Shown here: positions 746-1,519 of the stretch, one piece after another
How positions within the stretch are numbered: position 1 is the stretch's first letter
Layout of the letters: each line of letters opens with the position of its first letter
UHGV virus genome: UHGV-1834275
Direction: 5' to 3' (one strand)
From: a virus
Length of the DNA: 33,070 nucleotides
Translations under genes and position numbers: made by a program
Notes under the pieces: generated by a model
Seen by the model: the letters and a program-made list of their open reading frames with translations, nothing else
Told to the model about the DNA's origin: nothing
The model's database searches: none

Positions 746-780
746 TAAAAAAGCCCGTATTCGGCTACGGGCTTTTATTC
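746..780. terminator. Bidirectional rho-independent terminator between convergent genes
   Basis: AAGCCCGTA / TACGGGCTT 9-bp stem (751..759 and 766..774) with 6-nt loop, flanked by an A-run upstream and TTTTATT downstream. Confidence 0.6.
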
Positions 781-1519
781 ATTTATTTGATTCGAAGATA
801 TCGAAAATTGATGAATCATTGATATTTAAATTCTCAAACTCATTGTGTAAATCTTCTTTTAGCCTGATGATTTCACTAGAAAGGTCATAAGCTATAGATA
901 CATGTGGATTGTCAGTCAAATTCCATGTTAAATCCTCAAACTCTTTAACTTCATTGTCATTTATAGTAATACCCCAATAACCCATTATTATAGTTAGAAG
1001 GGTGATAAGTTCTGTTTGTTTAGAATTAATTTGTTCAAACTGCTTTAAGATTTTTGAAAAACTATCTTTATTATGAGGTTTAACACTCCATCCCAAAATT
1101 TTCAATTTACTATATTCGCTAATCAAATCTCTATAGTTTTTTGAAGATAACCCTATTACACTATCAAAAGATTTAATAAGACCATGCATAACTTTAACTT
1201 GTGTAAAACGCACCGACTTTGTATCGATTAAACAACATAACCATCTATTAAATGTATTTTCTAATATTGTAATTGTGAATTGCTTTTGTGTATTAGGTAA
1301 ATGTGTAGATAAAATATTTGAAGAATGTTCAATAGCTAATTCTTGAGTAGCATCTCTTTTCCAGTTTTTAGCAATCAAAAAACCTTTATATGCAACAAAA
1401 GCCATAAAAATATTTGCTATTGATGAAAGCCAGTCGGCAAGACTTCCAATATCAGAATGGGTTCCATATAAAATTAAAACTGATATAAAACCTAAAATCA
1501 CATAAGGAATCTTTTTCAT
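779..1519 (-). CDS. Membrane protein with two N-terminal TM helices; paralogue of 26548..27258
   Basis: Hydrophobic N-terminus (YVILGFISVLILYG ... IANIFMAFVAYKGFLIA) with the shared loop motif DIGSLADWLSS (second copy: DLGSLADWISS); roughly 170-residue soluble C-terminal region with no recognised motif. Confidence 0.6.
   Translation of the reverse strand: MKKIPYVILGFISVLILYGTHSDIGSLADWLSSIANIFMAFVAYKGFLIAKNWKRDATQELAIEHSSNILSTHLPNTQKQFTITILENTFNRWLCCLIDTKSVRFTQVKVMHGLIKSFDSVIGLSSKNYRDLISEYSKLKILGWSVKPHNKDSFSKILKQFEQINSKQTELITLLTIIMGYWGITINDNEVKEFEDLTWNLTDNPHVSIAYDLSSEIIRLKEDLHNEFENLNINDSSIFDIFESNK

Follow-up and report, generated by a model that had tools for sequence, protein, structure and literature searches.

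Two genes lying towards opposite ends of a prophage genome encode membrane proteins that share a short, near-identical stretch of residues, and this raises the question of whether the two are related by descent and what a phage would use them for. An initial annotation had described them as two copies of one 2TM membrane-protein family, with conserved anchors and diverged soluble domains. The window, by which we mean the whole stretch of 33,070 nucleotides that was analysed (UHGV virus genome UHGV-1834275), is a 36.9% GC prophage of E. coli located between rimO and bssR. It encodes a lambda-type GpA terminase, portal, capsid, tape measure, tail tip, lysozyme, a holin-like protein and a large serine recombinase (632 aa, on the rimO side). 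The features of the first gene, called A, and of its immediate surroundings are as follows.

779..1519, minus strand: gene A, 246 aa, family member ('FAM'), from the ORF list
1463..1510, minus strand: TM1 of A, residues 4-19, IPYVILGFISVLILYG (hydropathy; helix 4-18 in the model)
1421..1453, minus strand: codons of the A motif DIGSLADWLSS, the loop and the start of helix 2
1370..1429, minus strand: residues 31-50 of A, putative TM2, a weakly hydrophobic helix rich in small residues
749..776, no strand assigned: symmetric G+C-rich hairpin between an A-run and a T-run, 3 bases past the A stop
1580..1873, minus strand: holin-like gene, 97 aa, directly upstream of A (context only)

The reading frame of A was found exactly where it had been placed, on the minus strand, which the annotation had not given. 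Its motif, as quoted, is HSDIGSLADWLSS (window 1421..1453), set in the sequence context HSDIGSLADWLSSIANIF, and by column information content this motif is the most conserved block of the family. A starts 61 bp past the holin-like gene and is the final gene of the late strand; it lies ~1.7 kb from the bssR-side end of the prophage, and further cargo genes and then bssR follow it. The product of the holin-like gene matches GTA_holin_3TM in Pfam with an E value of 4.8e-5, just below the cut-off, and a PHROG holin with 1.8e-5. The same layout, with a family gene behind the holin, is repeated in L001, L055 and L016/L054. The hairpin at 749..776 is likely to be a bidirectional terminator between A and the convergent ORF at 451..744. 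The GC content of A is 27.9%, compared to 36.9% for the window.

Towards the end of the window past A, an IS3-family transposase fragment occupies positions 1-348, ends at ~348 and matches many E. coli copies at 99-100% identity. A 237-aa gene (307-486, minus strand) is cut short by it after ~46 codons. The intact 237-aa gene, present in L055, encodes an NPPF motif, which we take to be typical of N6-adenine methyltransferases. A SegE-type GIY-YIG homing-endonuclease-like gene (2769-3206, minus strand) sits inside the tail/lysis region.

The second gene, called B, belongs to a cargo island with the features listed here.

23764..26344, no strand assigned: remaining cargo island, from the packaging genes to B, with a PLD nuclease, two small ORFs and an HNH nuclease
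23764..24702, plus strand: PLD-family nuclease (Pfam PLDc_2, 5e-20; PADLOC matches MkoC, DpdK and DrmC)
25619..26344, minus strand: HNH nuclease (Pfam HNH, 3.6e-8; type IV restriction-enzyme-like PADLOC match)
26548..27258, plus strand: gene B, 236 aa, family member, opens a two-gene plus-strand unit in the cargo island
26569..26640, plus strand: TM1 of B, residues 8-31 (hydropathy; Hessa sum -4.8 kcal/mol)
26656..26688, plus strand: codons of the B motif DLGSLADWISS, the family motif
26680..26733, plus strand: putative TM2 of B, residues 45-62 (Hessa sum +4.05, marginal; small-residue stripe)
27304..28002, plus strand: 8xMP-family membrane protein, 232 aa, 45 bp downstream of B
28029..28045, plus strand: intrinsic-terminator-like hairpin with T-run, ends the unit of B and the 8xMP gene

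B, too, was recovered at its coordinates, on the plus strand and with 236 aa. Its motif, as quoted, is NPDLGSLADWISS (26656..26688), and the surrounding sequence is NPDLGSLADWISSVSAIG. B lies near the rimO-side end, ~4 kb from the serine-recombinase gene located there, and with A ~1.7 kb from the bssR-side end the original description of the two genes as standing at opposite ends of the phage is roughly right. The GC content of B is 30.9%. The PLD and HNH nucleases in the same island could each act in defence on their own. The HNH gene and B are separated by a gap of 203 bp, which contains a 26-nt inverted repeat (26382-26407 / 26439-26464, 96% complementary, 31-nt spacer), a candidate operator, terminator or insertion target; in L006 an IS (DDE_Tnp_1) occupies this same gap. 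Another homing-endonuclease-like gene, of the HNH_3+NUMOD4 type, lies in the early region (29709-30194, minus strand).

The letters of the two motifs, DIGSLADWLSS and DLGSLADWISS, are exactly as they had been quoted. In a direct comparison, BLASTP aligned A and B with 18/62 identities (29%, E 5e-6), and the alignment spans the motif, the second hydrophobic helix and ~20 residues beyond. The Smith-Waterman score was 78 against 38 +/- 6.5 in 2000 shuffles, of which one attained 78, and B scores highest against A of the window's 39 other ORFs (the next best reaches 53). Comparison by hhalign of two small subfamilies, that of A and that of B, gave a probability of 85% and an E value of 6e-6. Taken alone, this pairwise evidence is moderate, suggestive rather than conclusive: the alignment is limited to 62 residues at 29% identity, and the one shuffle that reached the observed score would be compatible with a chance motif in two unrelated AT-rich ORFs. 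Evidence at the level of the family is decisive. A jackknife profile was made from 109 relatives after removal of all sequences >27% identical to A or B, and it matched both proteins over their full length, A with an E value of 4e-33 (profile positions 21-238) and B with 1e-39 (profile positions 2-234). Moreover, 201 related clusters exist, A and B share their predicted fold and their top structural neighbours, and both are under purifying selection. Chance resemblance was rejected on the 201 clusters and the full-length matches, and we consider its probability negligible. A and B are old and distant paralogues with ~20% identity overall, as the annotation had supposed.

The same profile bears on what follows the motif. 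The C-terminal parts alone also matched it, residues 75-246 of A with an E value of 2e-12 and residues 85-236 of B weakly, with 2e-5. This indicates that the soluble domains, earlier described as diverged, are one domain that has diverged very far; the divergence stood up, and the idea of different domains mounted on a common anchor did not. In the profiles and in the models, the GSLADW module is followed by one homologous, fast-evolving helical bundle and not by an assortment of domains. At the DNA level the motif codons of A and B are identical at just 19/33 positions, which indicates that the motif is kept at the protein level; recent gene conversion between A and B was rejected for this reason.

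Word-indexed searches returned only two to three close clusters each for A and B. When a profile of both subfamilies was used in an exhaustive HMMER search, 201 clusters (50%-identity representatives) were obtained with E<=1e-3, 46 of them with E<=1e-10. A leucine-rich-repeat protein with GSLPDW repeats among the matches was discarded as a false positive. Nearly all members are 200-270 aa long with TM1, the motif and a second helix, and the shared N terminus consists of TM1, (F)EWGS[VLF][ST]DW[ILV]S, the second hydrophobic helix and A(Y)xKAPxW. A and B follow this architecture, with GSLADW leading to AKNW in A and to AWLAY in B. The conserved N-terminal membrane module of the earlier description is borne out by an information content of 2.3-2.7 bits/column over the motif and helix 2, compared to 0.7-0.9 in the bundle. 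Nearly invariant columns are D29, A43, A50 and W53 (A numbering). The bundle keeps two small conserved islands common to A and B, one being LKILGW in A and MKIMKI in B and the other a C-terminal xxDxF.

We found no consistent match to Pfam-A, PHROGs, PADLOC or NCBIfam among 120 members of the family. PADLOC v2 gave 0 matches for A and B, and none of its models was matched by >2 of the 120 members. Neither A nor B matched 8xMP (PF24838) or SLATT in the Pfam scan, and the holin models of Pfam and PHROG as well as the spanin models matched neither the two proteins nor other family members. A sequence profile search of PDB chains with the family returned coiled-coil and compositional matches alone. 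There was no Pfam match to a sensor domain of the 4HB_MCP type and no structural similarity to it beyond a generic four-helix bundle. In the libraries searched, no characterised protein with a function in defence, exclusion, toxicity or lysis is homologous to the family. One member, P0155, carries a DUF4760 label in UniRef, the sole source of that assignment, which we could not reproduce: DUF4760 (PF15956) was found neither in P0155 and seven relatives (E up to 10) nor in the 120 members (E <= 0.01). A function as i-spanin was also considered; the ORF lists show no lipoprotein gene nested in or adjoining A or B, and the multi-copy, island-borne distribution of the family speaks against it. Literature on 8xMP/PF24838, SLATT octamers and DUF4760 yielded nothing useful. 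The family is thus previously undescribed, in that it is missing from four curated libraries and from the solved structures.

AlphaFold models of A and B, built on alignments of 21 sequences, are all-alpha (pLDDT 81 and pTM 0.66 for A, pLDDT 75 and pTM 0.59 for B). Both show a TM1 helix, a turn of 4-5 residues, a very long helix that starts from the motif (residues 24-82 in A and 38-110 in B) and a bundle of long helices. The putative TM2 of A is part of this continuous helix. The part after the membrane module, ~170 aa, is fast-evolving and is predicted to be an elongated helical bundle. In a structure search of BFVD, the models of A and B independently gave the same two top proteins, which are themselves paralogues within one phage; the fold matches of the models are generic helical bundles.

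The designation as a 2TM protein is plausible, with a strongly hydrophobic TM1 and a second helix that is marginal: the simple Hessa sum has a family median of -3.6 kcal/mol for TM1 and of +4.1 kcal/mol for helix 2. Lysine and arginine make up 0.25 per residue in the N-terminal tail, 0.08 in the acidic loop and 0.17 past helix 2. Tryptophan residues flank a stretch of ~17 residues in the helix 2 region. Half of the residues of helix 2 (50%) are small, compared to 21% in TM1, with conserved small positions at +2, +5, +9, +13 and +16 after DW, a stripe that suggests tight helix packing or oligomerisation. The charge distribution, the tryptophan bracketing and the small-residue stripe together favour a hairpin with both ends inside as the most likely topology, in which case the bundle would be cytoplasmic.

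The distribution of the family points to mobile elements. A megablast search of 5,426 complete E. coli genomes showed that the prophage is absent from them, with only the IS3 fragment and a 75% match to the HNH gene recovered. The regions of A and B had no megablast match among 50,697 GenBank phages, and tblastn with B and with the consensus-like P0017 gave none either; no cultured GenBank phage carries the family. The closest TerL among the 50,697 GenBank phage records is 36% identical. The window, L002-L007 and L055 represent a lineage of unstudied low-GC temperate siphophages that integrate between rimO and bssR. A motif scan of viral contigs found 25 loci, nearly all with homologues of the TerL, portal and capsid of the window, and in these 25 contigs the family gene stands at the distal end of an opposite-strand island adjoining TerL. 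In relatives, recognised defence genes are found in this island: Old (E 4.7e-75), PDC-S15/FRG, PDC-S31/DUF2971, DUF3800 and a CBASS-type 2TM effector. When relatives were retrieved through TerL (76-98% identical to that of the window), the family was present in five and absent from nine. Presence in five of ~14 close relatives means that these genes are cargo and not core, and their GC content is 28-31%, against 37% for the phage.

Other members lie on chromosomal islands of Enterobacter, Kosakonia, Yokenella and Erwinia, and a Salmonella IncHI1A plasmid carries one beside an IS1. Comparison of the 397-aa gene that precedes this plasmid copy with the 396-aa gene that precedes the L018 copy showed them to be unrelated. 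Overall, members occur on mobile elements of Enterobacterales, chiefly in the prophage lineage of the window. In 17 loci (L008, L009, L015-L017, L021-L024, L026, L028-L033 and L039; not in the window) a protein of ~104-134 aa that starts MGNKNGYDPS is encoded on the same strand shortly before the family genes. It has no Pfam or PADLOC match, and a DUF2971 (PDC-S31) gene sometimes lies between it and the family gene. Some chromosomal copies have neighbours that we take to be T6SS-like (L008 5475-6369; L010 3112-3928; L012 1635-2831 and 7081-7900), presumably a DUF2778/Tlde1-type effector with an immunity gene and a PAAR protein. L012 adjoins rimO and shares island genes with the viral contig L033, and from this resemblance it may be a decayed prophage of the lineage of the window.

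The product of the gene behind B matches Pfam PF24838 with an E value of 1.3e-16 and 61 bits (cut-off 30), which places it in the 8xMP family, and SLATT_5 weakly (E 0.025); a profile search of PDB chains found no solved relative of it. An 8xMP gene follows the B-type member in every lineage where one was found (the window, L002-L007, L057 and L058/L059), and the pairing persists down to 53% identity (L058/L059). The order is reversed, with the 8xMP gene first, in L014, L036, L037 and L053. Behind the B-type member of L058 there are two consecutive, divergent 8xMP genes (3762-4460 and 4555-5535), which indicates that the partner gene is likewise duplicated and diversifying. One protein of 461 aa, P0082, joins an 8xMP-like sequence in frame to a family member. 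Read-through may explain it, because the 8xMP and family genes of L014 (2774-3529 / 3530-4077) abut with zero gap, or it may be a genuine fusion that links both functions. Most family members have no 8xMP neighbour.

The proposal that this is a diversifying family was supported. Contigs carry one to four tandem copies, with four in L035 and L038 and three in L029, L031 and L039, and L016 repeats the layout of the window with one copy behind the holin and two in the island. Several copies have no TM1 and start exactly at the motif (L025 7239-7802, L029/L031 6503-7759, L038 5857-6294 and L039 8571-9176; proteins P0070 and P0117-P0125, with starts such as MELGS, MDWGN and MAWYD). As many full-length members also have a methionine 2-3 residues ahead of the motif, a second translation product without TM1 is possible. 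Many pairs of representatives are 70-100% identical up to DW and 7-25% identical after it, and pairs that are 100% identical up to DW fall to 17-19% beyond; P0017 and P0033, for example, go from 100% to 19%. At the DNA level, L015 and L022 share 95% identity over the stretch from 895 bp upstream to codon 44 (DW) and are unrelated past it; L022 and L026 share 93% from codon 16 on, including the 3' flank. Breakpoints at this position indicate that the DNA encoding the motif is a recombination joint at which whole C-terminal modules are moved. For close pairs dN/dS is 0.11-0.30 within the family (0.24 for A against its L001 orthologue and 0.28 for B against L057), compared to 0.08 for the neighbouring 8xMP gene and 0.14 for the holin. 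These values mean that the genes are constrained and functional, under purifying selection, and no gene-wide positive selection was seen in the close pairs. Diversification has occurred mainly by cassette exchange and old divergence and not by positively selected point mutations.

Several known systems resemble the family in part. Like SLATT, 8xMP (PF24838) and the 2TM effectors of CBASS, Pycsar and retrons, its members are small, sit in the inner membrane, combine a helical hairpin with a soluble helical portion and are encoded in defence islands, and B shares an operon with an 8xMP protein. Unlike in those proteins, the hairpin is N-terminal, so that the domain order is reversed, and there is no sequence relationship: an assignment of the family as a relative of 8xMP was rejected on an hhalign probability of 0.3%, in line with the lack of a consistent PADLOC or Pfam match among the 120 members. 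A nucleotide-signalling partner is absent as well. Membrane superinfection-exclusion proteins such as SieA of P22, gp15 of HK97, Sie2009 of lactococcal phages and Imm of T4 are small, membrane-anchored cargo encoded near operon ends, variable among relatives and dispensable for growth of the phage. The family resembles them as small membrane-anchored prophage cargo that varies between related phages. To our knowledge these four do not form one sequence family, and we know of no description of tandem arrays or cassette exchange for them; our searches with the family recovered no protein of the SieA, gp15, Sie2009 or Imm type.

Polymorphic cassette loci are well known from CdiA-CT/CdiI orphan modules, Rhs tips and pilE/pilS. 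The family is similar to these in having a constant 5' and a variable 3' part, a short conserved motif at which recombination breaks fall, and 5'-truncated copies beside a full-length gene. It differs from CDI and Rhs in lacking secretion machinery, a toxin domain and a cognate immunity gene per cassette; no delivery domains were found in it, and the copies abut without intervening small ORFs. A further difference from these loci is that the truncated copies remain intact as ORFs, each with a start codon of its own, and may be expressed. With holins and antiholins the family has in common that A stands beside a holin-like gene, that a membrane helix contains many small residues and that some members may have alternative starts. 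Unlike holins, family members are much larger, with the soluble bundle of ~170 aa, are not core, lie mostly in the opposite-strand island and match no holin model. Membrane proteins as prophage cargo and cassette-type diversification are both already known in kind. What appears to be new is the combination of a hairpin joined at a recombinogenic motif to swappable bundles, tandem arrays, TM1-less copies and the pairing with 8xMP.

The location among anti-phage cargo and the tandem arrays with swapped tails suggest that these are probably phage-exclusion or defence proteins. The sensor or effector role put forward in the initial annotation would likewise be read from gene context, namely the defence-type neighbours and the 8xMP partner. 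We propose that they form a membrane-anchored family for phage exclusion or abortive infection that acts from the prophage, with a constant membrane module and an exchangeable cytoplasmic one, a statement that, taken as a whole, we hold with moderate confidence, at an even balance of belief and doubt. The constant module would comprise a positively charged N-terminal tail, a strong TM1, an acidic loop (E/D)-x-G-S-x-x-D-W and a helix 2 whose small-residue stripe ends in A-P-x-W; the exchangeable module would be the elongated helical bundle of ~170 aa. The family would act in phage-versus-phage conflict at the inner membrane, through superinfection exclusion or abortive infection. In such a division of labour, the variable bundle would set the specificity by recognising a component of the invader or of a partner, and the constant hairpin, alone or together with the 8xMP/SLATT-like partner beside B, would be the part that acts on the membrane. 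New specificities would arise by recombination at the DNA encoding the motif, with tandem and TM1-less copies as sources. There are points against this proposal. A itself lies outside the island, behind a holin-like gene on the late strand, most members lack an 8xMP neighbour, there is no sign of positive selection, and the fold matches are generic bundles. Guilt by association with a cargo island is also weak, because such islands carry anti-defence and host-fitness genes as well.

The position of A might instead mean that the family members are accessories of the lysis module, partners or regulators of holins (antiholin-like, or involved in lysis timing) that act with the holin in the membrane. 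A member lies directly behind the holin not only in the window but also in L001, L055 and L016/L054, small membrane proteins with a helix rich in small residues resemble many holins, and the methionine before the motif and the TM1-less ORFs recall dual-start holins. Nevertheless, B and nearly all others belong to the cargo island, which lies on the other strand and well away from the lysis genes; nine of ~14 close relatives that keep the same structural genes lack the family, up to four tandem copies occur, members are found on a plasmid and on chromosomal islands, and no holin or spanin model is matched. We regard a role in lysis as improbable. Hardly more probable in our view is a function in interbacterial competition or addiction, not directed at phages, in which the family would be the polymorphic toxin or immunity part of the system; it might, for instance, protect against an effector that targets the membrane, or keep an 8xMP pore former in check as its partner. 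The constant N and variable C termini, the breakpoints at the motif and the truncated copies mirror polymorphic toxin loci, the members in L008, L010 and L012 lie beside genes that we take to be T6SS effector/immunity- and PAAR-like, and there is the tight pairing, with one fusion, with an 8xMP membrane protein. Against this, the proteins have neither a secretion signal nor a carrier domain, the cassettes are not each followed by a small cognate gene, and most members are without 8xMP. Moreover, phage-island genes are common to the rimO-adjacent islands of L012 and L033, and the integration site alone may therefore account for the nearby T6SS-like genes.

Another alternative concerns how the protein sits in the membrane. 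As helix 2, at +4 kcal/mol in the Hessa sum, is not predicted to insert on its own, the protein could be single-pass, with TM1 alone spanning the membrane and the bundle in the periplasm, where it would block DNA injection in the way of exclusion proteins of the HK97 gp15 or lactococcal Sie2009 type. The features that favour the hairpin weigh on the other side, and we consider the single-pass form unlikely, although less so than the roles in lysis or competition.

Returning to exclusion or abortive infection by a hairpin with a cytoplasmic bundle, a more specific version can be put forward very tentatively. The family may be a cassette-switching membrane immune receptor, in which a constant killing or blocking hairpin, sometimes together with 8xMP, is joined at GS..DW to interchangeable cytoplasmic bundles that serve as sensors, and in which tandem and TM1-less copies are a reservoir of specificities. 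We think it rather doubtful that all of this is correct. If it were, it would be a phage-defence analogue of cassette variation in pilins and CDI, used to exclude rival phages. As the constant and variable parts are split at a defined motif, the sensing and the acting half could be told apart with natural chimeras and designed swaps.

If the anti-phage or exclusion role is true, the family would be a widespread single-gene membrane system, or a two-gene system where 8xMP is present, that is missing from the defence catalogues, and it would also offer a first functional handle on the 8xMP family. The TerL-adjacent island of this prophage lineage is a defence hotspot and useful for mining further systems.
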